From a virus, in IMG/VR virus record IMGVR_UViG_3300025153_000011: a stretch of DNA of 41,573 bases, one strand, 5' to 3'. The notes under the pieces were generated by a model. The model was not told the DNA's origin and ran no database searches. It saw only the letters and a list, made by a program, of their open reading frames with translations. Each line of letters begins with the position of its first letter. Within the stretch, counting starts at the first letter, position 1. The translations under genes were made by a program, and so were the position numbers. Of the stretch, positions 1,064 to 41,573 are shown piece after piece.

Positions 1064-1222
1064 ATGGCTATTGAGGAAAACACAAAGAAGTATGATGATA
1101 AACAGGCTACTAACGTCAGAATAGACCCGACGTTAAAAGACAGATTATTGCAAGAAGCAGATGAAAAGAAAAAGACTATGGCAGAAATAATTAATGATAT
1201 GCTAAGAAGACGCTATAAATAA
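1064..1222 (+). CDS. Small ribbon-helix-helix (Arc/CopG-like) DNA-binding protein candidate (52 aa)
   Basis: GGGGGTGGAG RBS, ATG at 1064, TAA at 1220..1222. Translation MAIEENTKKYDDKQATNVRIDPTLKDRLLQEADEKKKTMAEIINDMLRRRYK. The segment VRIDPTLKDRL..EADEKKKTMAEIINDML fits a beta-strand/helix/helix RHH pattern. Confidence 0.55.
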   Translation: MAIEENTKKYDDKQATNVRIDPTLKDRLLQEADEKKKTMAEIINDMLRRRYK

Positions 1223-1237
1223 GGGAGGCAAGTACGA

Positions 1238-3172
1238 ATGAAATTGAATGTTCTAAAAGCAGTTTGGAACACACAAGAGGGTTATGTATTTGTTCCTAGA
1301 CGTAAGGGTAAAGTATGGGACGAGGGTAGAGCGTTTGAGTATCCAGCCGATTGGGTTGCTATTCAATCCCGCATTATCAAGTCAGCAGACGACGATTGGG
1401 ATACTTATTGGTGTCCTATGGTCTTCGATAAGCCCAAGAGACTCAAGGAGAACGCCAAACGAGAACAAGGTATTCTGTGGGCGGACTTGGACGAAGTCGA
1501 CCCTAAAGATTTAGGAAATTTAAGACCCTCTATAGCGTGGGCATCCTCGGAAAACCGTTATCAATGCTTATGGTCTCTTGATAGCAAACACGATATTGAT
1601 GTTGTAGAGCAAGTGAATAAAGATTTAACCTACCACATAGGAGCTGATAAGGGTGGTTGGGACGTAACCCAAGTGCTAAGAGTACCTGGAAGTCCTAATT
1701 TCAAGTATGACCCACCGCAACAAGGCACGTTCCTATGGGCTGAGAAAAACTCTTATGTGCTTGAGAAAGTGCAAGAGCAGGTAGTGGCTACGGAGAGCGT
1801 CGAGGGCTCTAGTACAAAGAACGTTATTGAAATGGTTCTTTCAGAGTGGACAATACCACCAAGAACACGAGACTTACTCTTGACTAAGCCCGAAGAGGTA
1901 GAACAAGGAGAACGTTCCGATAGATTGTGGGAGATAGAGACATCACTCATAGAGTCGGGAGTGCCTTTGATGGACATAGTAGACGTGATATTGATGTGTG
2001 CCTGGAACAAGTTTAAGGGCAGACGTAATGAAGCCGAGCAAATCTATCACGAGGTAATGAAAGCGGATAAGCACGTTAAGACAAGAGTTGAAGAAGAAAA
2101 GAAAGTATTATCTCCAGTAGAAGACCGCATACGAAAAGATATGTGGGCTATACCGTTCGATACGTTCGTTTCCACAAGAATAGAAGCTCCAAAGTGGCTT
2201 GTGGAGGGCATCTGGCAAAGTGGAACGTACGGAATGATTGCTGGAGAGCCTAAGACGTACAAGTCAGTTCAAGCAACGGACATAGCCTTATCAGTAGCGA
2301 CAGGACGTCCTTACGTTGGGCAGTTCCCAATAGGTATATCGGGAGCCGTGTTGTATATCCAAGAGGAAAACAACGCTCAAACGGTACAGGACAGGATATT
2401 CAAGACAGCGTATGCAAAAGGTATGTTAACCGCAACTCCTTGTGGTTGGGCATTGGCAGACGATTTACCCTTGTATTTCTCCAATAACTACGGTGTAGAC
2501 TTAACCACAAAGGATAGCAGAGAGCTGATTGAAGCCACCATAATCAAGCTAAAGCCCGTTCTTATCATCTTAGACCCACTGTATATGATGCTAGGACAAG
2601 TGGACGAGAATAGTGCCAAAGAGGTTGGCGACATTCTAAGATGGCTGACCTACATAAGAAATGAGTATGGCGTCGCATTAATGATATGCCACCATTATAA
2701 CAAAGGCGGTTCGAGTGCAAGAGGTGGACAACGTGTAAGAGGTTCATCGGCATTTCACGCTTGGGTAGAGTCGGCATTATACATCAAATCGACAGCAGAG
2801 CCTAACACCGTGAAGATAGAGCGTGAGTTCAGAGCCTACCCAAGTATGGAAGAATTAACTATGAGGGTGGATATGGGGGCTCCAGGAGAGCTTTATTACA
2901 GGATAAGTATGGAGCAGACGGACGATACAAAAGGAACCGATGCGAAGCAAGAGCAAATCATTAACTTGTTAGCCACATCACATCGTAGCTTTGAGGAAAT
3001 GAGAACGCTTGTAAGTATGACGAGAAGAGAGCTAGTAGAAACACTTAAAACACTTGAAACAGCAGACTTGCTAGAGAGAAAAGGTGGTAACAAAGGTGGC
3101 AAGACGCTGTATAGCTTGAAAGAAAGGTTCGTGGATAAAGATGACGACAGCAAAGAGGACGTACAAGTATAA
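1238..3172 (+). CDS. DNA primase-helicase: AEP/prim-pol-like N-terminus + RecA-like (AAA_25/RepA-type) ATPase + C-terminal wHTH-like tail
   Basis: AAGGGAGG RBS before ATG at 1238. AEP-like motifs ILWADLDEVD (DxD) and VLRVPGSPNFKY. P-loop-like IAGEPKTYKS and Walker B-like VLIILDPLYMML. The helicase-type region follows (HHYNKGG..RGSSAF). Confidence 0.7.
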   Translation: MKLNVLKAVWNTQEGYVFVPRRKGKVWDEGRAFEYPADWVAIQSRIIKSADDDWDTYWCPMVFDKPKRLKENAKREQGILWADLDEVDPKDLGNLRPSIAWASSENRYQCLWSLDSKHDIDVVEQVNKDLTYHIGADKGGWDVTQVLRVPGSPNFKYDPPQQGTFLWAEKNSYVLEKVQEQVVATESVEGSSTKNVIEMVLSEWTIPPRTRDLLLTKPEEVEQGERSDRLWEIETSLIESGVPLMDIVDVILMCAWNKFKGRRNEAEQIYHEVMKADKHVKTRVEEEKKVLSPVEDRIRKDMWAIPFDTFVSTRIEAPKWLVEGIWQSGTYGMIAGEPKTYKSVQATDIALSVATGRPYVGQFPIGISGAVLYIQEENNAQTVQDRIFKTAYAKGMLTATPCGWALADDLPLYFSNNYGVDLTTKDSRELIEATIIKLKPVLIILDPLYMMLGQVDENSAKEVGDILRWLTYIRNEYGVALMICHHYNKGGSSARGGQRVRGSSAFHAWVESALYIKSTAEPNTVKIEREFRAYPSMEELTMRVDMGAPGELYYRISMEQTDDTKGTDAKQEQIINLLATSHRSFEEMRTLVSMTRRELVETLKTLETADLLERKGGNKGGKTLYSLKERFVDKDDDSKEDVQV

Positions 3173-4556
3173 GACAACGCCTACCGTTGAACAGACTTAC
3201 GCCCTAAAGAGTGCCTTAAAGCAAGGTAAGTATGGCATCTTCTTTCAACAGCGTGTAGGTAAAACAAAAGTGGCAATAGACTTCTGTGGGGTAAACTACT
3301 TCAAGAAGAACGCTAGAAAGGTTTTAATAGTGTGTCCATTATCAGTGCGGAGTGAGTGGGAAGCTCAAGTAGACGACCACTTACCCGACGAGATACCTAG
3401 ATTGGTGTTTATGTATCCCGATAAAGATATGAAGATTAATGAGCTACTTAAATGCACTAAGAAACCTATAGCACCGCTCGTATTCCTGGTTGTCAATTAT
3501 GACAAGCTGACAACCCAGAGAGAACGTATTCTCTGGTGGGACGCCGACATTGTAATCTTCGACGAGAGCCACTTAGTCAAACACCACAATAGCAAACGTT
3601 CTAAGGCATCAGCATCTATTACTAAAAATAAGGATATGGTGCTTTTGCTTACGGGAACCCCAATCACGAAGAGTTGGACGGACATATTCAGCCAGTTTAA
3701 AGTGATGAACCCCGAAATATTCGGTAGTAGATGGGTAGCATTCCGTGAGAAGTACGCTATAATGGGTGGCTATATGAACAAGCAAGTAGTTGGGTGTACC
3801 GACATTGACGATATTAAAGCAATCGTGAAAGACCACTCGGTAAGAGTGCTGAGGAAGTCGGTAATGAAAGAGCCCGAAATAGAGGAGATTATACTCAAAA
3901 TCCCATTCGAGCCATCAGCTCAGAAGAGGTACGACGAGCTGAAAAAGACGTGGGTAACTGAGCTTAACTCTGGTGCAGTAGTCGAGGGAGACCTTGCAGT
4001 TACAAGGCTTATGAGACTCCAGCAGTTCTGTGGAGGATTTGCAACGTCAAGTGAGGGCGTCGTTGAGCAGATAAGTAGTGCAAAAGCAGAGGTATTGCGA
4101 GACCTATTAACCACAAAGCAATGTGGTAATGAGAAGATGGTAATATTCCATCGGTTCAAGGCAGAGGCGGTATTGCTCCAACACGTACTTAGGAAATTCA
4201 ACGTCGGTTATTACAACGGCTCGGTTCCCGAAGATGAACGGCTCAAGGTTAGAAAAGATTTCCAGGCGGGAAAACTTGACGCTATTGTAGTTCAAATTGC
4301 GACGGGAGCTATGGGCGTATCGTTTGACACGGCTCATATCAACGTCTTTTACTCTCTCGATTTTAGCTTGATGAATTATCTACAGGCTAAAGATAGAGTG
4401 ATGGGGCGTAACCAAACGAGTGAGGTAGTGACGAATTACTACCTGGCTATAGACAAATCAATAGACTTGAAACTGATTAACACGTTAAAGAACAACGAAG
4501 ACTTCGCTAGTTCTGTATCTGACGCCTATAAGGCAGTTTTGAAAGGAAGTATTTAG
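3141..4556 (+). CDS. SNF2-family (DEAD-like superfamily 2) helicase
   Basis: Motifs GKTKVAID (I), IVIFDESH (II, DExH), LLLTGTPI (III), and a C-terminal helicase domain (GAMGVSF, QAKDRVMG). The start overlaps the primase gene by 32 nt, so the start is uncertain. Confidence 0.85.
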   Translation: MTTAKRTYKYKTTPTVEQTYALKSALKQGKYGIFFQQRVGKTKVAIDFCGVNYFKKNARKVLIVCPLSVRSEWEAQVDDHLPDEIPRLVFMYPDKDMKINELLKCTKKPIAPLVFLVVNYDKLTTQRERILWWDADIVIFDESHLVKHHNSKRSKASASITKNKDMVLLLTGTPITKSWTDIFSQFKVMNPEIFGSRWVAFREKYAIMGGYMNKQVVGCTDIDDIKAIVKDHSVRVLRKSVMKEPEIEEIILKIPFEPSAQKRYDELKKTWVTELNSGAVVEGDLAVTRLMRLQQFCGGFATSSEGVVEQISSAKAEVLRDLLTTKQCGNEKMVIFHRFKAEAVLLQHVLRKFNVGYYNGSVPEDERLKVRKDFQAGKLDAIVVQIATGAMGVSFDTAHINVFYSLDFSLMNYLQAKDRVMGRNQTSEVVTNYYLAIDKSIDLKLINTLKNNEDFASSVSDAYKAVLKGSI

Positions 4557-10926: not shown

Positions 10927-10945
10927 GCCCTACTCTTTTTTTATT
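10912..10945 (+). terminator. Rho-independent terminator at the convergence of the + replication arm and the - late operon
   Basis: Stem aagagtag (10912..10919) / ctactctt (10930..10937) followed by tttttatttc. It overlaps the stop region of the - strand endolysin gene. Confidence 0.6.
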
Positions 10946-32388: not shown

Positions 32389-32622
32389 CTATTCCTTTCC
32401 CAACGTCTTTGCGTAGGTTCTTACGTCTTGCATCAGCATATCTACTGCAATTTCAAGGGGCAACCCCTTGTTTGGAGTGGCGTCAATCTCTGCTCTCCCT
32501 GTCGGAGTACCATAATACGTTCTCAGCTCCTCCTCAAGAATGTCTACAGCTAGCCCGAGGTCATTCTCCTTGATGTATAATTCACAAAATCTACCTTTAA
32601 TGTCATTAATTGTCTTAGCCAT
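32389..32622 (-). CDS. Hypothetical protein (77 aa)
   Basis: GAGGAGG RBS. TAATG overlap with the terS stop. Lies between the terminase subunit genes. Confidence 0.55.
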   Translation of the reverse strand: MAKTINDIKGRFCELYIKENDLGLAVDILEEELRTYYGTPTGRAEIDATPNKGLPLEIAVDMLMQDVRTYAKTLGKE

Positions 32623-33254
32623 TATATAACCTCCTCGAAATCTACGTCAACTACAACTGGCGGGTTCATATCTACCACTGGGGTGTCCTCTGGTGCTGGA
32701 GCGTCAAGCATAATCTTTGCCTGGCTCGCAAGCTCAGACCAGGTATGCACAACAGTCCCGTGAATGTTTACGTCCTTAGTGTCTTTTCTAGCATATTTCT
32801 CTGGTTTGCTGGCTCGAATTGCCTCAATCATTAATTTGTCCGACCCATTCATCGCCCGCCGTATCAACTCCTCTTCAAGAGCGTCCTGTGCCATCGCCAT
32901 CGCTTCGGCTAGTGCTGAGCAAAACTCTGGGTCATCGTTCCACTTTGTTGCCACAAGGTATGGAACACCAGCTCCCGTACAAGCCCCCATCTTCGTTCCC
33001 TTTACAGCGTACTGCATAATATACATCTGTTGCTGTGGGCTGAGTTTAGTCTTACTAAAATCAAACAGCGGGCTCGGATTAGACACCAACTCCAACGCAC
33101 TTCGCATCGGGTAGGGTGCCCCCATCGACATTGCTCCTACTGGGGCTACTGGTAAAGGCTTCAACGGTTTAAATTCCAGCTCTTCTTCGTCATCGTCGAC
33201 ATCAAAAGTGTCGTCTACTAAGATTTCGTCAAAGTCTATTACAAAATCACTCAT
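32622..33254 (-). CDS. terS: Terminase small subunit candidate (210 aa)
   Basis: First gene after the late promoter. AAAGGGGA RBS before ATG at 33254. HTH-like LSPQQQMYIMQYAVKGTKMGACTGAGVPYLVATKW resembles the small-terminase N-terminal pattern. The ORF-track start at 33320 is rejected. Confidence 0.6.
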   Translation of the reverse strand: MSDFVIDFDEILVDDTFDVDDDEEELEFKPLKPLPVAPVGAMSMGAPYPMRSALELVSNPSPLFDFSKTKLSPQQQMYIMQYAVKGTKMGACTGAGVPYLVATKWNDDPEFCSALAEAMAMAQDALEEELIRRAMNGSDKLMIEAIRASKPEKYARKDTKDVNIHGTVVHTWSELASQAKIMLDAPAPEDTPVVDMNPPVVVDVDFEEVI

Positions 33255-33408
33255 AATGCGTCCCCTTTCTCTCTTTAAAATCAATATACTACCGACCGAT
33301 AACCGTGTCAACAAAAACAAAGAAGCACGCCCCCAAGTAAGCAGAGACGTGCTTCATCTGAAAAGAGAAAAATTCACAGAAAGGTAATTATAACTCTCAG
33401 TCACGCTC

Positions 33409-33827: not shown

Positions 33828-34319
33828 TTAGTATAAAAAACGGTGCTTTCCTCTACTCCCTACCACAGTCTTTGTGTCAGCCCAATATGGGTCACACTTT
33901 TCTGGGTTATAAAAATGGGTCACGTTCGAGTCAAACTCCTTTACACCCTGTAAAAAAACCTCGTTCACTACTGTCTGGCATTCCTCTGTCACAGTGCCCA
34001 TATACGGTGGTGCAAATTGTGATGGTGCGTTAAGTATCTCATTAACACCCTTGTCCCACAGAATATGTCTGTCAAAGATACACTGTGCCACACCCCTCAT
34101 ATTCTCAATCGGCTCGCCCCGTGTCTCCGCCATCACAATCCTGGCTACACTCTGGAGCGTCTCCTGGCTGTACGCTGGCTGGGATATTGTCTGTACTCTT
34201 GGACTGGGTAACACCTGTTTTGGAATGTAATCTCCACCAACACCCGTCACGACAGACCCACATAACATCACGAAACTTACACACAGCACTAACGTCAGCC
34301 CTCGTATCAATACCCACAC
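33828..34319 (-). CDS. SleB-like cell-wall hydrolase (Hydrolase_2 family) with N-terminal signal/anchor helix
   Basis: VARIVMAETRGEPIENMRGVAQCIFDR...NAPSQF... matches the SleB/CwlJ-type pattern as I recall it. N-terminal hydrophobic LTLVLCVSFVMLCGSVV. The GTG start at 34319 is uncertain. Confidence 0.7.
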   Translation of the reverse strand: MWVLIRGLTLVLCVSFVMLCGSVVTGVGGDYIPKQVLPSPRVQTISQPAYSQETLQSVARIVMAETRGEPIENMRGVAQCIFDRHILWDKGVNEILNAPSQFAPPYMGTVTEECQTVVNEVFLQGVKEFDSNVTHFYNPEKCDPYWADTKTVVGSRGKHRFLY

Positions 34320-34543: not shown

Positions 34544-35044
34544 TTACCTCGTCCTTTCCGATGGCAAGTGATAGCGACAAACAACTTCCAGCTGAACCAC
34601 AAACTCTGGGCTCCCGTTGGAAATATTGTGGATATAATCCGTCAGCTCGTGAATGTACTTACAAACATTCCCAAGATTGTGCACGCATCTCTCACACGGC
34701 ACAGTTAATTTCAACTCTGTTTTGACGCGGTCATCATAACACCTCTCAGATATCGGTACTTGTACCCCAATACCACAGTCATTAAAGTTATTATTAATGT
34801 GTTCCATAGGGTCTGGGTCAACTTTGGTCTTACTTCCTGGTCTAGCCATACCATACTTCTCTTGCAACTCGAATTCTCTGGCTCTTTTCATAAGGTTCTC
34901 TACGGTCTCTGGTATTCCGTGTCCCCCATAATCCATCCTAGCGTCTTTCTGTTTTTTAAGTGCCTCATACTCAGATGATTCGCAGTCTGTGGTTTCCCAC
35001 TTATTTCCCGCTGGGGGCATTCCTTTACAGTCTTCTCTTAACAT
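34544..35044 (-). CDS. Cys-rich hypothetical protein (166 aa)
   Basis: AAGGAGA RBS and ATG at 35044. First gene downstream of two tandem promoters. Eight Cys in total, including CERCVHNLGNVC. Confidence 0.6.
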   Translation of the reverse strand: MLREDCKGMPPAGNKWETTDCESSEYEALKKQKDARMDYGGHGIPETVENLMKRAREFELQEKYGMARPGSKTKVDPDPMEHINNNFNDCGIGVQVPISERCYDDRVKTELKLTVPCERCVHNLGNVCKYIHELTDYIHNISNGSPEFVVQLEVVCRYHLPSERTR

Positions 35045-35086
35045 AATTCAGTCTCCTTTTTTCTGTGAATTTAACTTATTGAAACC

Positions 35087-35115
35087 ACAATACACGATGG
35101 ATTTTAGGCTGTCAA
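35087..35115 (-). promoter_or_regulatory. Sigma-A-type promoter (TTGACA - 17 nt - TATTGT), proximal leftward early promoter
   Basis: The reverse complement of 35110..35115 is TTGACA and of 35087..35092 is TATTGT. Confidence 0.6.
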
Positions 35116-35141
35116 GCATTATTTTGATAAACTTGTATGAT

Positions 35142-35170
35142 ATTTTAATTTAGGTTGAGGAGTCTGTCAA
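35142..35170 (-). promoter_or_regulatory. Sigma-A-type promoter (TTGACA - 17 nt - TAAAAT), distal leftward early promoter
   Basis: The reverse complement of 35165..35170 is TTGACA and of 35142..35147 is TAAAAT. Confidence 0.6.
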
Positions 35171-35479
35171 AAGTATTTAAAATAAATATATATTTTTTCG
35201 AGGGGGGTATGACGCTCTTAGCATCTTATAACGTCAGATGGTACCTAATTGCTAGAGGATTTAAAATAATTTCTCGAAGAGGAGGTAGTCATAGTTCCCC
35301 CCGCCCCCTCGTGAGTTGGTAGCTTGGCAACTGTTTTTAGGTACCCCATTTAATAATCAATAATTATTTATGCTATAGGGGTAAAATAAATAAGCTTAAA
35401 AAAATCAAGCCCTGGCATTGCAGTGCCTCAAGGCATTATATGGATTGATAGCACACTATAAAATAAATATGAGATATTG

Positions 35480-35508
35480 TTGACGTGTTTAGCAACCTAT
35501 GGTTTAAT
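35480..35508 (+). promoter_or_regulatory. Sigma-A-type promoter (TTGACG - 17 nt - TGgTTTAAT), rightward early promoter
   Basis: TTGACG at 35480..35485 and TTTAAT at 35503..35508, preceded by TGg. Confidence 0.6.
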
Positions 35509-35570
35509 GGTGTTGAGCTTAAGTTACTAGCAATGTTGCATAGCACTTGAGACGGGAAAGAGGGTATACC

Positions 35571-36122
35571 ATGAAAAATAATACTACAATCTACAAGCCA
35601 GTTTTCGAAAGTGATTTCATTGCCACACTAGATGCTAGAAAAGAATTAAAGATTCAAACCGTTATTGGCTCCAATGGTACTGCCACTATCAACTTGCTAA
35701 TGAATTTTAAATCAGACAAGACCGACGGCAAAGGATATATCAAGGCGATAGCATTCAACGTGTCAAACGATAACATGAGACTCTTAGTAGATGCTTTAAT
35801 TGCCGCTCAAAAAGTTCTTAATACTGAAATGAAAAAAGGACTTTCAGCAAGACCACAAGTCAAAGAAGTTGTAGCACTATCGGGTAATGCTCAAATTGAC
35901 GCCCTAAGACAAGCGGGTTTAACGGATGAACAAATATCCGCCTTAGGGATTGAAATACCAAAGCCAGCCAAGAAAAAAGTCCTCAGCACCACAGTAGAAG
36001 AGGAGATTGATATTTTTACCCAAGTAATTGCCTTAATGACTCCAGCACAACTCAAAAAGCTTAATGCCGCTGAATTATTAAGAGGTATCAATGGCAAAGG
36101 TGGTGCAAAGGGTGGCAAATAA
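35571..36122 (+). CDS. Hypothetical early protein (183 aa)
   Basis: GAAAGAGGG RBS and ATG at 35571. The ORF-track start at 35547 is a TTG with no RBS. C-terminal Lys/Gly tail GKGGAKGGK. Confidence 0.6.
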   Translation: MKNNTTIYKPVFESDFIATLDARKELKIQTVIGSNGTATINLLMNFKSDKTDGKGYIKAIAFNVSNDNMRLLVDALIAAQKVLNTEMKKGLSARPQVKEVVALSGNAQIDALRQAGLTDEQISALGIEIPKPAKKKVLSTTVEEEIDIFTQVIALMTPAQLKKLNAAELLRGINGKGGAKGGK

Positions 36123-36300
36123 CCGAATACTACAAGAGCTTGACTACACCGATAGAGTCAACGAGTTGATGGCACAAGCTGAACAGGATTTTACCGATAA
36201 AGCGTGTAAACTGTATATCGACCTAGTCAACGCCCAGCTAATCAAAAAGGATATTCAGAATTATGCCATTCTCAGACACAAGCTAAAAAATCAAATTTAA
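36091..36300 (+). CDS. Hypothetical early protein (69 aa)
   Basis: AAGAGGT RBS and ATG at 36091, with a 32-nt overlap with the upstream gene. Followed directly by a strong terminator. Confidence 0.5.
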   Translation: MAKVVQRVANNRILQELDYTDRVNELMAQAEQDFTDKACKLYIDLVNAQLIKKDIQNYAILRHKLKNQI

Positions 36301-36303
36301 ATT

Positions 36304-36333
36304 AAAGCCCCTAGAAATAGGGGCTTTTTTATT
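36304..36333 (+). terminator. Rho-independent terminator
   Basis: Stem aaagcccct (36304..36312) / aggggcttt (36319..36327), 6-nt loop, with a T-run through 36330. Confidence 0.8.
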
Positions 36334-36741
36334 GCCATTGAATATATCAAGCTGAAATAGTGATAGAGATATGATTTAAAGCCCCTAAATCATCGATTTC
36401 AGCGTGTTTTATAGTCTTTTAATATCAATATGCCATCATAGGCATTTTAGAGCTCAAATCGCTCAAAATCCAAAAGCGTTTTTTTAGCATAAATTATAAT
36501 AATGCCTGTAGCCTCGGAGCCTGTCAGCTTAGCGACGCTATAAGAAAATGACGCTATAAACCGTCAGAAAAAAACTTAATATATCGCCTGTAGCGTCAGA
36601 GCTTGGTTCAACTATGCCGAAAACAAATGGAAATCGGCATAGTTAAGGTTTGTCATCCCCCTTTATTCTTTGTTGCCTAGCTTATTCAAATCCTATTTTC
36701 TAATCTCCCAAATCGGGTCTCTAGTCTTGTTGGCAAAACCT

Positions 36742-36787
36742 TATATATATATATACAAAGACGTAGTCTTTGTAATATATATATATA
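36742..36787. repeat. AT-rich near-perfect palindrome ((TA)7-caaagac gta gtctttg-ta-(AT)n)
   Basis: Read directly: tatatatatatatacaaagac (36742..36762), gta, gtctttgtaatatatatatata (36766..36787). Confidence 0.9.
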
Positions 36788-36797
36788 AAGGGCTTTT

Positions 36798-37129
36798 GTC
36801 GAACAAATAGATACTGGAAATTCCCTCAAATGTCAAATATTACCATTTTACCGTCGAACAAACTCTTGGTAAAGATAAACATCGAATTTGCAATGCTTAC
36901 ATCAATTTCCGTCGAACAAAAAATCACTCCGTCGAACAGTCTTGGTAACAATAAACCCATTGATTTCAACGTTTACCATTTATTCCCATAAATGTCAATT
37001 CAGCTTATAATAGCCCAAAACGTTGAAATTCCAATCTTGGTAAAGATAAACTTAGGTATTGCAACGCTTTGCTGTCTTTTCGTCGAACAGTTTTTTTATA
37101 CTTTGATTTTTGTTCGACGTTTTCTGTAA
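36798..37129. repeat. Iteron array: GTCGAACA x5 direct + 1 inverted, interleaved with three copies of a 17-mer TCTTGGTAAAGATAAAC
   Basis: GTCGAACA at 36798, 36853, 36911, 36931 and 37082, and inverted TGTTCGAC at 37121. The 17-mer is at 36864..36880 and 37035..37051 (identical) and at 36940..36956 (2 mismatches). The region is non-coding. Confidence 0.85.
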
Positions 37130-37191
37130 CCCAGTGATTGCAATGGGTTTAGGGTTTTATTAAGTTTTTGGTCGCTTTTTAGTGATTTTGC

Positions 37192-37220
37192 TTGACAAGA
37201 ATTTAGAGCTGATTTATACT
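37192..37220 (+). promoter_or_regulatory. Sigma-A-type promoter (TTGACA - 17 nt - TATACT)
   Basis: TTGACA at 37192..37197 and TATACT at 37215..37220. It shares TTGACAAGAAT with the 38017 promoter. Confidence 0.7.
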
Positions 37221-37275
37221 GTGGATACAGTCAATTTAAACTTGTCAACACATAATATTATAAGGAGAAAAAACA

Positions 37276-37983
37276 ATGGAAAAAGAGAAAAAAGTCTTAG
37301 AGCACAGGGTAGCATTTAGAATGGCGGATGAATTGTTTAACAAGGTATCTCTGGAGGATAATGCTGGGGAGCTAGTACGAGAATTGCTTGAAAATCATTA
37401 TAGACTAACGCCTAAGATACCAAAGCCGAAAGAACACGCTGTAAAAGGTCATTTAGTAGCCACAAAGACAGGGAAACGGGCTCTGATACTCCCAGTAGGG
37501 GATATATTGATGAAAGGGCAACCCGATAGGGAGCGTGTTGAGCTTTGGTGGTGTCCGTTAGAGCACGTAGATACTGTGGTAAAGTTAATGTCGGTATTCG
37601 ATGGTTGCTCAGCTGGTATAGGGGAAGAGGGTAATGGTACGGACTATATGCCCGAGATAATCCAGGAAGAACACCAAGAGCGTAAGCGTAACGGGTGCTT
37701 TACCCCATCGTGTAGAATGGATGAAGCCCTTATCGGGGATAAGTTAATATGGATGAATATAGACGATAGTGAAAAGGCGATAAAGAGCTTCAAAACGCAT
37801 ACCGCAGTACCGTGTCCTATTAGAATTGACGTGATAAGGTATAACGACGACGATAGATATAAAGAAGCTTGTACTATCGGGAATAAGTTATTCACATACT
37901 ACTATAAAAATACCAGACCATATGATAACAGTGCAATAGATACGCATACTAATGTATTCAACAAACTGTACGACGTCGACTAG
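37276..37983 (+). CDS. Hypothetical protein (235 aa) with possible RHH-like N-terminus; candidate iteron-binding or regulatory protein
   Basis: AAGGAGA RBS and ATG at 37276. N-terminal HRVAFRMADELFNKV...AGELVRELLENHY has a strand-helix-helix flavour. The gene has its own promoter and is flanked by shared sequence motifs. Confidence 0.6.
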   Translation: MEKEKKVLEHRVAFRMADELFNKVSLEDNAGELVRELLENHYRLTPKIPKPKEHAVKGHLVATKTGKRALILPVGDILMKGQPDRERVELWWCPLEHVDTVVKLMSVFDGCSAGIGEEGNGTDYMPEIIQEEHQERKRNGCFTPSCRMDEALIGDKLIWMNIDDSEKAIKSFKTHTAVPCPIRIDVIRYNDDDRYKEACTIGNKLFTYYYKNTRPYDNSAIDTHTNVFNKLYDVD

Positions 37984-38016
37984 AAACGTTGAAATTGCAA
38001 CGGTTTGAGAAATGTG

Positions 38017-38045
38017 TTGACAAGAATGTCAGAATGTGATATAAT
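38017..38045 (+). promoter_or_regulatory. Sigma-A-type promoter (TTGACA - 17 nt - TGaTATAAT) of the AAA+/VWA operon
   Basis: TTGACA at 38017..38022 and TATAAT at 38040..38045 with a TGa extended -10. This is the closest match to consensus in the window. Confidence 0.75.
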
Positions 38046-38048
38046 AGA

Positions 38049-38100
38049 GCCATCGTTTGAAGTGTCAGTCTTGGGCTGAGCAACAAACCGATGGCTTTTG
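38049..38100 (+). terminator. Promoter-proximal hairpin plus T-tract (attenuator-like) in the operon leader
   Basis: gccatcgtttg (38049..38059) pairs with caaaccgatggc (38084..38095) with one bulge. It is followed by TTTT (38096..38099) and starts within a few nt of the predicted transcription start. Confidence 0.5.
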
Positions 38101-38280
38101 ACTCGGAGCCGAAGTGGTTGAACAATCCCAACACTTTGAAACAAGTTAATTTTATAGTATTGAAGTATTCATACGCTAGATGTATGAAAGCACAGTTGCA
38201 TTGCTGAATGGCTCGACCAAGCCTTATATGTAACAGGAAAGGTTCGCTGAAACCACGAAAAAGAAAGTGAGGTGTTATAT

Positions 38281-38604
38281 ATGAAATATAAGGTGTTTAG
38301 GGAATTAGCTGGTAGTTGTTTTGGTAAACATAATCCACTAGAGTCTATGTGTAAAGTGTGTACTAAACAAGTTAAGTGTATAGAAAGGGGATTAAGCATG
38401 AGTTATTATGGAGATAAAGTCACTGATTTACTAGAAGAAAATAAGACTTTAAGACGTCGCTTAGCACGTCAGTTAAGAATTAATAAAGAATTACAAGACC
38501 TTGTTGATGTTACAACAACAGGACTTTCTGATGTTCTTGCTAAGACGAAGCAAATGCACGAAAACCAAATTAGTATACAGGAATACTTAGATAGTTTGAA
38601 ATAG
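38281..38604 (+). CDS. Small protein (107 aa): N-terminal Cys cluster (C-x10-C-x2-C-x5-C) + coiled coil
   Basis: GTGAGGTG RBS and ATG at 38281. An in-frame alternative ATG at 38398 has an AAAGGGGA RBS. First gene of the operon. Confidence 0.55.
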   Translation: MKYKVFRELAGSCFGKHNPLESMCKVCTKQVKCIERGLSMSYYGDKVTDLLEENKTLRRRLARQLRINKELQDLVDVTTTGLSDVLAKTKQMHENQISIQEYLDSLK

Positions 38605-38618
38605 AGAGGAGAACCACA

Positions 38619-40130
38619 ATGGAAAAGAGATTTAGACTAGATAAAAGGCACTTTAGCGTGCTATATCAAGGGCACAGCACATCGGCTTTGATAAATGGTA
38701 GTTATTACTTCGGGTACATAAACGACAAAGGTGGTCTGGTAGTGCTTAACGAGGAGCGTAAGTGGAGCAAATATGGCGTTAAAAACTTTAAACAGTATCC
38801 TGGCGTGCTAACAACAGTAGTCCACGTTTATGGAAGCCTTGCTATTAAAGGCTCTGACGTAACAACGTGTACTGACTCGGGGTTAATAAACCTTAAAACT
38901 CCGTCTATAGGAAGTACCTCTAAAGAAATCGCCGATATGCTTGGTATGGACGCTAGTGTAGTAGAAAGTATACTGAGCGGTTCCTTTCCTAGTAGTAGTA
39001 GTACAATAACCGGTTCTTTTTATGCTGGCGGTGGCGGTGGTATTATAGGAGCAAGCACTACACCATCTAAGGCTACTGTAATGCCTCATACTTTTAGTAA
39101 TGCAACCTATGTAGCAGACACTATTGCACCCGTAGTAAAGAAAGAGAGCGTGAAGATGACAACATATCCAAAGAAAAATACCTTATCCCACTTCCTTAAT
39201 GAACAGGGAGTAAGTGACACATTAATAAAGAAAATACAGGAATTTAGAAATGAAAACAAGCTCGATAGTGGAGAAGCTTCCTTGCTAGAACGTATTAATA
39301 AGCCTAACAGTTGGTATGTGGGAAAAGAATGGAGCTTGGCAATATCGGCTATATTAGCTGGTAAGAACATCTTGTTAGAGGGCGATAAAGCGACTGGTAA
39401 GAACGTGTTTGCTGAATGTCTTGCTTATTTGTTTGGTAGACCAATATGGGATATATCCTGTCATACTAACACAAACGCCGAGTCTCTTATCGGTGGAGAA
39501 ACATTCCGAGACGGACAAGTTGAGTTTAGACCTGGTAGTGTTTATAACGTAGCTAAGTTTGGTGGTTTTGGTGTCCTAGACGAAATCAATATGGCAAAAG
39601 CCGATGCTCTTGCAGTATTGCACAGTATAACTGACCGTAGAAGAGTCCTTGATGTTCCTGGTTATCAGCGTCTTAACCTTAACCAAGCTACCCGCTTTAT
39701 TGGAACGATGAATTCGGGATATGCTGGTACTCGTGAGTTAAACGAGGCTCTTGTCTCAAGGTTTGTGGTAATACACGTTACGAGTATGCCGAAAGCAAGT
39801 CTGCTCAAGCATTTACAAGCGATGTATCCTAGTGCTAATGCATCAACACTTGGTTATTTTGCACAGTTATTCTGCGACTTACAAGCTAAGGCAAAGAGCT
39901 CCGAAATATCCACAAAATCAGTGGACTTACGAGGAATACAGGACGCTATTGAGATAGTTGAGGTAGGGAACGTTAGTCCTTATGAAGCTGTCGAAGTGTG
40001 TATCATCAACAAAGCCTTTGATGAATACGAGAAAACACTTGTTAGAGACGTAGTAAACACGTTAATACCAAAGAGTTGGACTAGCCTAGACTTATTCAGT
40101 CTACCAGGTTCTATCTCAGTAACATTTTAG
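38619..40130 (+). CDS. CobS/MoxR-like AAA+ ATPase (AAA_5 class) with an N-terminal extension of about 230 aa
   Basis: GAGAGGAG RBS. Walker A LLEGDKATGKN (39381..39404), Walker B FGVLDEIN (D-E at 39579..39584), sensor-1 FIGTMN, Arg-finger-like NEALVSRF. Immediately upstream of the VWA gene. Confidence 0.8.
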   Translation: MEKRFRLDKRHFSVLYQGHSTSALINGSYYFGYINDKGGLVVLNEERKWSKYGVKNFKQYPGVLTTVVHVYGSLAIKGSDVTTCTDSGLINLKTPSIGSTSKEIADMLGMDASVVESILSGSFPSSSSTITGSFYAGGGGGIIGASTTPSKATVMPHTFSNATYVADTIAPVVKKESVKMTTYPKKNTLSHFLNEQGVSDTLIKKIQEFRNENKLDSGEASLLERINKPNSWYVGKEWSLAISAILAGKNILLEGDKATGKNVFAECLAYLFGRPIWDISCHTNTNAESLIGGETFRDGQVEFRPGSVYNVAKFGGFGVLDEINMAKADALAVLHSITDRRRVLDVPGYQRLNLNQATRFIGTMNSGYAGTRELNEALVSRFVVIHVTSMPKASLLKHLQAMYPSANASTLGYFAQLFCDLQAKAKSSEISTKSVDLRGIQDAIEIVEVGNVSPYEAVEVCIINKAFDEYEKTLVRDVVNTLIPKSWTSLDLFSLPGSISVTF

Positions 40131-40142
40131 GGGGTGTAATAT

Positions 40143-41573
40143 ATGTTAAAAAATCAAAACCGTGTCGCCAATATGGCGTACACCGTAACTGGACGGTATG
40201 ACTTCAAGGTAGAGGGGGGAGAAAACTCCTGTACCGACACTAAGAACGTTTCAATCCATAGTGACAGCGTGTTAGAGCAAATCGGTATGAGCCCAAAAGA
40301 CATTATGGACCTTCAGCTTTCTGCTAGTGCACACGAAGCAGGGCACCTTAACTACTCTAAGATGGAAGATATGACGGACTATATGAAGAAGATGCAGACG
40401 TTAGGAGCCGACCTTGCCCAAGCAAATGACCTTATGCAGATTGTTGAGGACTATCGTATTGATACAGAGATAGCACGCCATAGACCCGGCTACAAAGATT
40501 TGAGTGAACGCTCGCTAAAAGTGTTATCTGGTGTGTTTTCGGAGTTTCCTAAGACCGCCGATAAGTTGTTTGTGGAGACAAAAGCACTTGGCTGTTTGCC
40601 TTACGGGTTGGACTTATCCAAGTATCCCGGGTGGGATAAAGCAGTTGATTGGACTAGAGTACGGGCTATGGCAACTGAGATAATGCAACGTTCCACAAAG
40701 GCAACAAGCTCCAAAGAAAGTGCCGACATCGCCGCTAATATGTATATTAAATACTATGGCTTACCAGACCCTAGTGAGTCCAAGAGCAAAAATCCTAATC
40801 CAGACCTTAACGAGGAAGATGGTGGAGAGGGAGACGGAGATAGCACAGGCACTAAAGCCCCTAACGCTGAAAGCAAGGAGAACGATAGCAAGGAAAAAGG
40901 TGGCGACGAGGACAGTAACGACGCTGATAGTAATGATACTGACGATAGTGAGGATAACGAGGATAGTGACTCTGATAATGATGACGATAGTGACTCCGAG
41001 AGTGATGCTGATAAGGAAAATGAGTGTAATGACGCTGTAACCAAAGAGCTTACGGAAAAAGAGCTTACGGAAATGATAAAGAAAAGTATGGAAAAAAGCT
41101 CACTCGATAAACTTGTGGATACTGAGGTTGATGGAAAAGTTAAAAAGGCGATAGATAATGCAAAGGCTTTAGCGATTACTGAGGATACAAGCACTAGAAA
41201 CCGTGAAGATGCACGTAAAGAATGTATTAAAGTCTACGGAAAACCCATATTAACACCTATCGAAGCACAACGTTTAGAGGACGCTGTAGGGGTAGGGATG
41301 AACAAAGGAGCGTTAGTTCACTACACTGATATATCCGAGACACTAAATAGGACTTCTAGCGGACAAAAAAGTTGTAAAAGCTACAATATGGCATCAATTA
41401 AGAGACTGGATAGACAAGCACTCCAGTTAGCAAACGAGATAAGGACAAGCCTTACTGCAAGAGACACGGAAAGCTTCTCTACCTCAACAATAGGACACAT
41501 TAAACCTAACAAGATATGGAAAGCCACTCATTGCGACAATCCTCACGTGTTTACACAAAAGGAACAGACCGAA
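40143..41573 (+). CDS. N-terminal part of the CobT-like protein: HExxH region + acidic D/S/N/E tract; continues across the junction into 1..793 (698 aa total)
   Basis: AGGGGGTG RBS and ATG at 40143. I translated the frame to the window end and found no stop. HEAGH at 40332..40346. Acidic tract about 40794..41016. 41447..41573 duplicates 1..127, so the unique CDS is 40143..41446 plus 1..793, which is 2097 nt. Confidence 0.8.
   Translation, partial: MLKNQNRVANMAYTVTGRYDFKVEGGENSCTDTKNVSIHSDSVLEQIGMSPKDIMDLQLSASAHEAGHLNYSKMEDMTDYMKKMQTLGADLAQANDLMQIVEDYRIDTEIARHRPGYKDLSERSLKVLSGVFSEFPKTADKLFVETKALGCLPYGLDLSKYPGWDKAVDWTRVRAMATEIMQRSTKATSSKESADIAANMYIKYYGLPDPSESKSKNPNPDLNEEDGGEGDGDSTGTKAPNAESKENDSKEKGGDEDSNDADSNDTDDSEDNEDSDSDNDDDSDSESDADKENECNDAVTKELTEKELTEMIKKSMEKSSLDKLVDTEVDGKVKKAIDNAKALAITEDTSTRNREDARKECIKVYGKPILTPIEAQRLEDAVGVGMNKGALVHYTDISETLNRTSSGQKSCKSYNMASIKRLDRQALQLANEIRTSLTARDTESFSTSTIGHIKPNKIWKATHCDNPHVFTQKEQTE
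41447..41573. repeat. Terminal overlap, copy 2 (identical to 1..127)
   Basis: Same 127-nt string as 1..127. Its length and position at both contig ends fit a circular-assembly overlap. Confidence 0.95.

Follow-up and report, generated by a model that had tools for sequence, protein, structure and literature searches.

A palindrome-anchored array of 9-bp boxes and its predicted ribbon-helix-helix binder in a phage clade known from metagenomes

Introduction

Ribbon-helix-helix (RHH) proteins are mostly repressors and are often encoded first in their operon; repressors of the CopG/ORF56 type bind one or two pseudo-symmetric operators that overlap their own promoter. In satellite phage P4, the ori and crr loci carry octamer repeats that the alpha protein binds via its C-terminal winged helix. 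Here we describe an array of six copies of the word GTCGAACA in IMG/VR virus record IMGVR_UViG_3300025153_000011, together with the gene downstream of it, which encodes a 235-residue protein with a predicted RHH domain. Throughout, the window denotes the whole stretch of DNA that was analyzed, 41,573 bases in length.

The dimeric RHH proteins omega, ParR and ParG recognize sub-sites of 7–11 bp that are present in 6–10 copies, direct and inverted, upstream of their own gene (PMC9499535). At iteron origins, such as those of plasmids encoding Rep, RepE, pi or TrfA and the O-ori system of phage lambda, the repeats read by the initiator lie beside an AT-rich melting element and the gene of the binder (PMC4980987, PMC4081077). 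A small RHH repressor controls the replicase or primase-helicase operon in the CopG-RepB and ORF56-ORF904 pairs (PMC4234260), and oriV of RSF1010 combines initiator repeats with inverted, hairpin-forming priming signals for both strands (PMC8567376).

The phage locus resembles each of these systems in part. The description that suits it best is a predicted RHH-fusion protein paired with an array of several sites that is anchored to a palindrome, in phages known only through metagenomes. An original prediction, made from the letters of the window, had proposed an origin or master regulatory locus, which we find plausible.

Results

A locus-specific array of six boxes

All six copies of GTCGAACA in the window lie within 36797–37119 (323 bp); as 8-mers they start at 36798, 36853, 36911, 36931 and 37082 on the plus strand and occupy 37111–37118 on the minus strand. 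Shuffling the whole window gave a mean of 1.15 copies and a maximum of 4, and none of 100 shuffles reached six. Read as the 9-mer YGTCGAACA, the box takes the form TGT-CGA-ACA, with five copies of CGTCGAACA and one of TGTCGAACA. All six exact copies belong to the array, and the 13 one-mismatch copies elsewhere in the genome are what chance would give. The array is therefore real and specific to this locus, and the genome-wide count that the original prediction had proposed as a check confirms the enrichment.

Box 1 (36797–36805, TGTCGAACA) begins just beyond a (TA)n-rich palindrome described below, and boxes 2, 3 and 4 (36852–36860, 36910–36918 and 36930–36938; all CGTCGAACA) follow on the same plus strand, with a 17-mer repeat starting 3 nt after box 2 and another 1 nt after box 4. 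Box 5 (37081–37089, plus strand) and box 6 (37111–37119, minus strand), again CGTCGAACA, are the left and right arms of a 9-bp inverted pair, box 6 lying 80 bp upstream of the −35 hexamer of the early promoter. The T-rich spacer between the arms is 21 nt long (86% A+T), where 31 nt had first been given, and the inverted copy starts at 37111 rather than at 37121; as a terminator the pair, with its 21-nt loop, was considered weak.

Spacings between successive boxes are 55, 58, 20, 151 and 30 bp. These are not multiples of the helical turn, so the earlier description of the spacing as helically plausible does not hold; several of the spacings are conserved between lineages. The six boxes lie 80–394 bp upstream of the early promoter and fall in differing frames of the short open reading frames (ORFs) listed there, in keeping with the earlier view of the region as non-coding. 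A segmental duplication of 55 nt (36864–36918 and 37035–37089, 76% identity) accounts for one box and one 17-mer.

Conserved positions, lineage-specific words

The family of the 235-residue protein comprises 42 clusters at 50% identity in metagenome assemblies, and no homologue was detectable among deposited phages, plasmids (PLSDB), GTDB genomes or IMG/VR contigs. Upstream DNA was recovered for ten further lineages and for an eleventh, more distant one, L015 (lineages and contigs carry such handles here). No match came from a DNA similarity search of 35000–40200 against 50,697 phage records, nor from tblastn searches with two family members against phages and with the window protein against plasmids, and protein-guided scans of IMG/VR, JGI metagenomes and GTDB genomes yielded no more loci. 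A DNA-pattern scan with the conserved GCCTGTAGCCNCGGAGCC returned 71 loci, none of which encodes a family homologue, and these were set aside as chance matches. Over the locus, six other contigs that encode this protein match the window at 100% identity, so they provide no usable micro-variation.

Wherever contigs reach far enough, the lineages share one layout: a terminator; a left block with AAATCG-N-CGATTT-type boxes and two copies of CCTGTAGCCNCGGAGCC; an AT-rich palindrome of 50–70 bp; a repeat-rich spacer of 290–450 bp; a conserved box resembling CCCAGTGATTGCAAYGGGTTT; a TTGACA-17-TATACT promoter; and the gene. The word GTCGAACA itself occurs in none of the relatives. In its place stands a lineage-specific word of the same form, in three to seven copies. 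Set against TGT-CGA-ACA in the window (six copies), this is cGT-ATG-ACA in L017 (three), TGT-AA-ACA in both L020 and L022 (seven each), TGT-AAT-ACA in L029 (six), TGT-CCG-ACA in L035 (three), TGT-CTT-ACA in L036 (six) and TGT-ATAT-ACA in L037 (six). The words are almost wholly confined to the spacer, with one or two more core copies elsewhere in some loci. An automatic scan of the 520 bp before the gene, in which the commonest GT-N2-4-AC core was counted, found three to seven copies in all eight loci whose protein carries the predicted RHH domain, against a mean maximum of ~1.1–1.2 in the shuffle null, and at most one or two, as in the null, in the three RHH-less loci (L030, L033 and L015).

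Positions are kept while the words change. Measured from the palindrome end, the first four sites lie at 2, 57, 115 and 135 bp in the window, at 5, 56, 115 and 136 bp in L020 and at 12, 62, 119 and 140 bp in L022, and their distances to the promoter differ by ~100 bp among these three. The conserved offsets indicate that the sites are positionally homologous and that the recognition sequence is what has changed; by this comparison, at least seven replacements of the recognition word have taken place with the sites staying where they are. A close pair of sites, 20–25 bp apart, recurs in the window, L020, L022, L036 and L037.

In L015, whose primase is 56% identical and whose homologue lacks the RHH, GTCCACA/TGTGGAC motifs are scattered over 2.4 kb (1300–3700), coding sequence included, which looks like a different, dispersed motif system.

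A predicted RHH domain as the probable binder

The gene at 37276–37983 (plus strand) encodes the 235-residue protein, in which a predicted RHH domain (about residues 9–45, nt 37300–37410) is followed by a disordered linker and a C-terminal domain. Across the family, a variable N-terminal segment of ~45 residues and a disordered linker likewise precede a well-conserved C-terminal domain of ~160 residues. RHH_1 matches five of 40 aligned members (best E 1.2e-6), and the N-terminus in the family also matches the RHH-type families NikA-like, CopG_antitoxin, CcdA and DUF6290. For P0003, a close homologue, the N-terminus alone matches RHH_1 with E 6.6e-4 and 20.0 bits against a cut-off of 20.5. An AF2 model from 40 sequences (pLDDT 88) has helices at residues 18–25 and 30–44, and the short segment before them, the expected place of the RHH strand, is modelled as coil in the monomer; an earlier model from six sequences had a pLDDT of 54, and its fold search carried no meaning. 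A profile of the N-terminal domain retrieved no RHH entry from PDB sequences. From these profile matches we take the N-terminal segment of the family to be an RHH domain, and the window protein is assigned to it because it aligns with relatives that reach threshold.

The putative DNA-reading β-strand of this domain differs wherever the word differs: it reads HRVAFRM in the window, TRLSFRP in L017, KLISVRV in L029, IKVSIRM in L035, RTITTRL in L036 and ISINMRM in L037. L020 and L022, which have the word TGTAAACA in common, have the identical strand KTVSFRT. Domain and boxes are also lost together. The N-terminal segment is missing from the homologues in L030 (with L031 and L032; 169 aa), in L033 (167 aa) and in the distant L015 (185 aa), and about a quarter of the 40 aligned members encode the C-terminal domain without an RHH head. 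A hidden RHH exon in L030 would not fit between promoter and start codon. Both L030 and L033 keep the palindrome, the left block, the TGGTAA repeats described below and the promoter. Given that word and strand co-vary, and that no boxes remain where the RHH is missing, we judge the N-terminal RHH of the 235-residue protein to be the likely binder of the boxes.

The C-terminal domain is modelled with a per-block pLDDT of ~92–98 over residues 71–220, the greater part of it above 95. A fold search found no match in the PDB (best E 1.7) or BFVD (best E 0.94); the domain belongs to no Pfam or PHROG family, and its sole NCBIfam match scores 16 bits against a cut-off of 305.

A conserved palindrome at the edge of the array

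Abutting box 1, and overlooked in the original prediction, is a (TA)n-rich, near-perfect palindrome of 62 bp (36735–36796, 79% A+T). As a single strand it gives a hairpin with z = −8 in the window, and equivalent palindromes in eight lineages have z −5.3 to −9.9 against shuffles. The apical stems differ among lineages (CAAAGAC, AAACCCT, CTATTTTTCT, CTTTTCC, AAAACCCC, AACCCC and CTATGCCCC), a compensatory change by which the palindrome keeps its symmetry. By nearest-neighbor stability the palindrome is among the three weakest 60-bp duplex windows of the genome, ~3.9 standard deviations below the mean, and it is the weakest such window in L038 (of the L020 type), L033, L017 and L036. We consider it a candidate DNA-unwinding or cruciform element.

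On the minus strand, box 1 and the right palindrome arm together make up a leftward promoter-like TCGACA-17-TATATT (36774–36802), and L020 has an analogous TTTACA-17-TATACT. Such a match could arise by chance in (TA)n sequence, or could mark a promoter directed into the palindrome.

Further repeats and flanking elements

The three 17-mers are present as originally claimed: TCTTGGTAAAGATAAAC is exact at 36864–36880 and at 37035–37051, the latter copy inside the duplicated unit 37035–37089, and occurs with two mismatches, as TCTTGGTAACAATAAAC, at 36940–36956, all on the plus strand, with 0.13 copies expected at up to three mismatches. They belong to a TGGTAA(AG) family, TGGTAA occurring five times in a 396-bp zone against 0.48 expected (P about 1e-4). 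The zone holds 9 of the 16 TGGTAA copies of the locus in L017, 7 of 11 in L033 and 3 of 3 in L030, and the family is missing from L020, L022 and L029. In the window and in L017 TGGTAA repeats stand directly after a box, which suggests that repeat and box form composite sites.

A third family, TTKCAAYG, had also escaped notice. It has five copies in 36888–37145, at 36888, 36964, 37059 and 37138 on the plus strand and at 37021 on the minus strand, and includes a perfect 12-bp inverted repeat, ATTTCAACGTTT / AAACGTTGAAAT (36963–36974 / 37018–37029). Genome-wide it numbers 21 copies against 5.7 expected, a roughly fourfold excess, the dispersed copies lying in coding regions on both strands. Motifs of this type stand at matching places in all lineages, RHH-less ones included. 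More than one repeat family is thus present, as first proposed, implying more than one DNA-binding protein. The TGGTAA and TTKCAAYG families are presumably read by other, more conserved proteins; a small RHH protein, the winged helix-turn-helix (wHTH) tail of the primase-helicase (both introduced below) and host factors are natural candidates as readers of such conserved motifs, though candidates only.

Between array and promoter lies a conserved box, CCCAGTGATTGCAATGGGTTT (37130–37150, plus strand), found also in L017, L020, L022, L030, L033 and L035. The early promoter (37192–37220, plus strand) is a near-consensus sigma-70 promoter, TTGACA-17-TATACT, with 11 of 12 matches, and its hexamers recur at the same place in all relatives. 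Between its −10 and the Shine-Dalgarno sequence stands the CTTGTCAACAC box (37241–37251, plus strand), a palindrome TGT-CA-ACA that is present in the window, L017, L020 and L022 and absent from the RHH-less L030 and L033; it is possibly a low-affinity operator. A box similar to CCCAGTGATTGCAATGGGTTT recurs at 37987–38007, ahead of a second strong promoter (38017–38045, plus strand) of perfect extended form, TTGACA-17-TGnTATAAT; 15 bp upstream of this promoter is the palindrome CGTTGAAATTGCAACG (37987–38002), of the TTKCAAYG family, and an untranslated leader of ~235 nt separates the promoter from the next ORF.

Two contigs from different JGI samples, L027 and L028, are 100% identical to the window and end within 2 bp of each other at ~38042–38044, coinciding with the −10 of the promoter at 38017; a third, L026, stops at 38386. 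These ends could reflect strain-variable DNA downstream or a physical end.

The non-coding stretch as a whole (36330–37275, 950 bp) is 66% A+T against 56% for the genome. To its left, a terminator (36304–36327) closes a small two-gene unit on the plus strand. The left half (36330–36720) carries AAATC(N)CGATTT-type boxes at 36387–36399 and 36455–36469, two direct copies of CCTGTAGCSTCRGAGC (36505–36521 and 36587–36603) and a hairpin with an 11-bp stem (36610–36644), and its sequence is conserved across lineages whose proteins are only 47–59% identical. RNAalifold applied to the conserved left block found five pairs and no compensatory change; single-sequence folds reached only z −2.2 and −2.8, and a structured RNA was rejected. 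The conserved elements here are probably protein sites. A reading of 38-nt units as TTGGTA-17-TGCAAT promoters was likewise rejected for its poor hexamers.

Genome setting

The ends of the window are identical over 127 bases (1–127 / 41447–41573), and the window is for this reason taken as a circularly closed, complete genome of 41,446 bp, with the circular break point inside a CobT-like gene. Minus-strand genes at 10941–35044 encode structural, lysis and packaging functions, among them the small terminase (32622–33320) and the endolysin (33828–34319). Plus-strand genes from 37276 round through the window end to 10926 form an early/replication block, of which the gene for the 235-residue protein is the first, behind the near-consensus promoter kept in all relatives. 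Next listed in this block are an AAA_5/MoxR-like (CobS-like) ATPase (38619–40130) and a CobT-like VWA protein (40143–793, wrapping), both on the plus strand; this pair is kept immediately downstream of the family gene in every lineage with enough recovered DNA.

A 52-residue RHH protein (1064–1222, plus strand) is encoded directly upstream of a protein that joins a putative RepB'-type primase, an AAA_25 helicase and a C-terminal wHTH (1238–3172, plus strand). The small protein matches RHH_1 with E 0.004, and its relatives do so with 8e-4, besides HicB, CopG and ParG matches. For the primase-helicase, presumed to be the replication enzyme acting at the origin, the window protein has an AAA_25 match of E 1.3e-31 and a RepB_primase match of 23.4 bits, below the cut-off of 24.3; a precomputed PF16793 match is found in many homologues, and the wHTH has a weak HxlR-like match. 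Further genes of the block encode, in order, an SNF2 helicase, a UDG-exonuclease-PolA fusion, a PD-(D/E)XK nuclease, AAA_24, DUF669 and VRR-NUC proteins. No tRNAs were found, an Rfam scan of 35000–38700 gave sub-threshold noise only, and the protein scans brought up neither an integrase nor plasmid-maintenance genes.

Identical phage sequence also stands on JGI contig Ga0212090_10000815 (L023; 70,038 bp, of which 6.7 kb was seen), which is longer than one 41.4-kb genome; a concatemeric assembly or an insertion into larger DNA may explain this. Other samples that contain the phage include SRR5829599 and the JGI sample of contig Ga0123338_10000463.

Discussion

We put it at about an even chance that RHH dimers on the palindrome-anchored boxes modulate origin use, early transcription or both. 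One RHH dimer would bind each 9-bp pseudo-palindrome TGT-CGA-ACA, and dimers would sit both on the four boxes anchored to the palindrome and on the inverted pair near the promoter. The C-terminal domains would thereby be concentrated on this DNA and might bridge it. The resulting nucleoprotein complex would control the opening of the palindrome, or its use as a replication start for the RepB'-type primase-helicase, and would also feed back on the early promoter. Taken by itself, the presence of a replication origin in this region falls slightly short of evenly balanced, and for modulation of the early promoter by the boxes the scales stand level. The two roles are compatible and about as likely as each other, as in iteron plasmids. 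What favors an origin is that the first four boxes are anchored to a conserved palindrome whose duplex is the least stable of each genome, or close to it. Origin-like traits are the sites lying within bases of the palindrome, the adjacent gene of the proposed binder, the replication genes downstream, and the combination of four direct sites with an inverted pair.

Several points weigh against this proposal. At the level of the protein, the N-terminus of the window protein itself stays below every Pfam RHH threshold, and the box center measures anywhere from 2 to 4 bp, a variation that a single rigid RHH dimer would not easily accommodate if it contacts both the TGT and the ACA arm. The C-terminal domain is without a structural match, and the part it plays is the main gap in the mechanism. 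At the level of the comparison, the lineages are phylogenetically related rather than independent samples, with L020 close to L022 and L030 close to L033; the RHH-less loci count as two independent lineages, and L015, where the gene has no long spacer upstream, is a weak control. At the level of the DNA, two windows in the 35.1–35.4 kb intergenic region, which is equally AT-rich, are as unstable as the palindrome; DnaA boxes (TTWTNCACA) are absent from the region in the window, with isolated matches in only 3 of 11 loci; and the cumulative GC-skew minimum at 36–37 kb was rejected as an origin signal, since it coincides with the switch in gene orientation. With the nearest box 80 bp from the −35 in the window, classical promoter occlusion is unsupported there. 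Because RHH-less relatives keep both the region and the C-terminal domain, the boxes would be an accessory layer rather than an essential core.

A bolder form of the same proposal, which we regard as rather improbable, would make the family a new kind of phage origin organizer. An RHH head re-tuned at least seven times would tether a domain of novel fold; this C-terminal domain would help to extrude or melt the (TA)n palindrome and hand the fused primase-helicase onto the exposed hairpin strands, with ssi-like priming on both. If so, the words would be replicon-specificity or incompatibility determinants between co-infecting relatives.

The alternative that survives best has the same binder and differs in function alone. 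The boxes would be a purely transcriptional operator array that tunes early or spacer-internal promoters and takes no part in replication, and the RHH, joined to the first early gene, would be an autoregulator like CopG, pRN1 ORF56, Arc and Mnt; we think this possible, though on balance unlikely. RHH proteins being mostly repressors, such a role would be in character. The orf56/orf904 operon of pRN1 is a documented case (PMC4234260). In L020, L022, L029 and L035 the last box ends 15–18 bp upstream of the −35, but the promoter has no box closer than 70 bp in the window, L017 and L037. The TGT-CA-ACA palindrome between the −10 and the Shine-Dalgarno sequence, confined to the four closest RHH lineages, and the leftward TCGACA-17-TATATT formed by box 1 and the right palindrome arm both fit an operator array, as does the loss of RHH and boxes together in L030 and L033 with the rest kept, which is more readily pictured if the two are an accessory regulatory module than if they form the core of an origin. 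Six or seven sites over 300 bp, however, far exceed the needs of autoregulation, and boxes 1–4 hold their distance to the palindrome, not to the promoter.

It is improbable, in our estimate, that the boxes are P4-like or IncQ-like origin iterons whose reader is the primase-helicase wHTH or the small RHH from the gene upstream, with the 235-residue protein unrelated to them. The enzyme does have the parts for it, a putative RepB-type primase, an AAA_25 helicase and the weakly matching HxlR-like wHTH, and in P4 the octamer repeats are bound by the C-terminal winged helix of alpha. The gene order, with the small RHH ahead of the replicase, is also that of the CopG/RepB and ORF56/ORF904 operons (PMC4234260). 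Both proteins are, however, constant where the boxes vary. The putative recognition helix of the wHTH, RREL..LK.L, is conserved in the window, in the L017 and L020 types and in P0009 (72% identical), and as RRDL in the box-less L033 type; the β-strand of the small RHH, TN(V/L/I)R(I/L), is conserved in the window, the L017 and L020 types, L034 and the box-less L033. With helix and strand unchanged among the CGA, ATG and AA lineages, we rejected the primase-helicase wHTH and the 52-residue RHH as binders of the variable boxes. Box presence tracks instead the N-terminal domain of the 235-residue family, and these conserved proteins fit the conserved TTKCAAYG or TGGTAA motifs better. Of the binders named in the original prediction, co-variation thus favors the adjacent 235-residue protein and speaks against the wHTH tail and the 52-residue RHH.

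A centromere-like partition site (parC/parS) with an RHH binder of the ParR, ParG or omega kind, which would imply a plasmid-prophage lifestyle, is very improbable. RHH centromere binders do use mixed-orientation arrays of short repeats beside their own promoter, but omega requires at least four contiguous heptads (PMC9499535) and the phage boxes are not contiguous. No NTPase of the ParA, ParM or TubZ type was seen, the neighboring ATPase being AAA_5/MoxR-like with a CobT-like VWA partner; neither PLSDB plasmids nor GTDB genomes contain the family, and the proteins scanned include no integrase or plasmid-maintenance genes.

Equally hard to credit are non-functional repetition by segmental duplication in an AT-rich spacer, for which the 55-nt unit would explain one box and one 17-mer but not the conservation of positions across lineages that share no box sequence, nor seven different words each amplified three to seven times at the same place, and a packaging (pac/cos) site, given that the small and large terminase genes are on the opposite strand at a distance of 3.5 kb, separated from the array by the endolysin gene and other ORFs.

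Returning to RHH dimers that act on palindrome-anchored boxes, the proposal overturns no expectations. It does supply a concrete binder candidate for the array and turns a 950-bp 'dark' spacer into an annotated control region, in a clade without relatives among sequenced isolates or plasmids. The lineages form a natural specificity series of at least seven pairs of RHH β-strand and TGT-N2-4-ACA operator at homologous positions, useful for studying DNA reading by RHH proteins and the joint shift in specificity of a protein and its many sites under an unchanged architecture. The C-terminal fold, without a PDB or BFVD match, heads the early genes, and its role, be it in replication, host takeover or otherwise, is worth finding. 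Should the palindrome be an origin, this would be a first origin model for phages that use a fused RepB'-type primase-helicase.

Among known systems, the array agrees in site number and mix of orientations with those of omega (ParB-pSM of pSM19035), ParR and ParG, here with a predicted RHH binder. It differs in that the sites are non-contiguous, 20–150 bp apart, in that no partition NTPase was seen among the neighboring genes, and in that the RHH is fused to a 160-residue domain without structural match, with the array abutting an AT-rich palindrome. Because the sites are non-contiguous and a partition NTPase is lacking, the locus falls outside the definition of an RHH centromere. As at iteron origins, the direct repeats face the unwinding element and the inverted pair faces the promoter (PMC4980987, PMC4081077), and there is an adjacent AT-rich element, here a palindrome of 79% A+T that lies 2 bp from box 1. 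The phage binder, however, would be an RHH and not a winged helix protein, and scans of Pfam, PHROGs and NCBIfam gave no Rep-family match for it. Its boxes are 9 bp long and irregular, unlike iterons of 17–22 bp at a regular spacing of ~22 bp; the region has no DnaA boxes, related phages manage without the sites, and the origin role here is putative.

The likeness to P4 lies in octamer-size repeats and a primase-helicase-winged-helix fusion enzyme. In the phage, however, co-variation points away from the winged-helix tail as binder, and all six copies sit in one 323-bp cluster with no second, distant crr-like cluster. Compared with RSF1010 and IncQ replicons, which have RepA, RepB', RepC, iterons and ssiA/ssiB, the phage has a putative RepB'-type primase and a RepA-like AAA_25 helicase, here fused; family scans (Pfam, PHROGs, NCBIfam) gave no RepC-like match, and there are no 20-bp iterons. 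That the phage palindrome might expose a hairpin on both strands for priming, in the RSF1010 manner, is pure conjecture by analogy, and the palindrome differs in being (TA)n-rich with an apical stem of 7–10 bp, against two separate ssi elements of 40 nt. Lastly, the phage recalls CopG-RepB of pMV158 and ORF56-ORF904 of pRN1 in the small RHH protein encoded directly before the primase-helicase, to which it adds a predicted RHH fusion heading the early genes; unlike the operators of CopG or ORF56, the sites of the phage number six, reach up to 400 bp upstream and are anchored to a palindrome.

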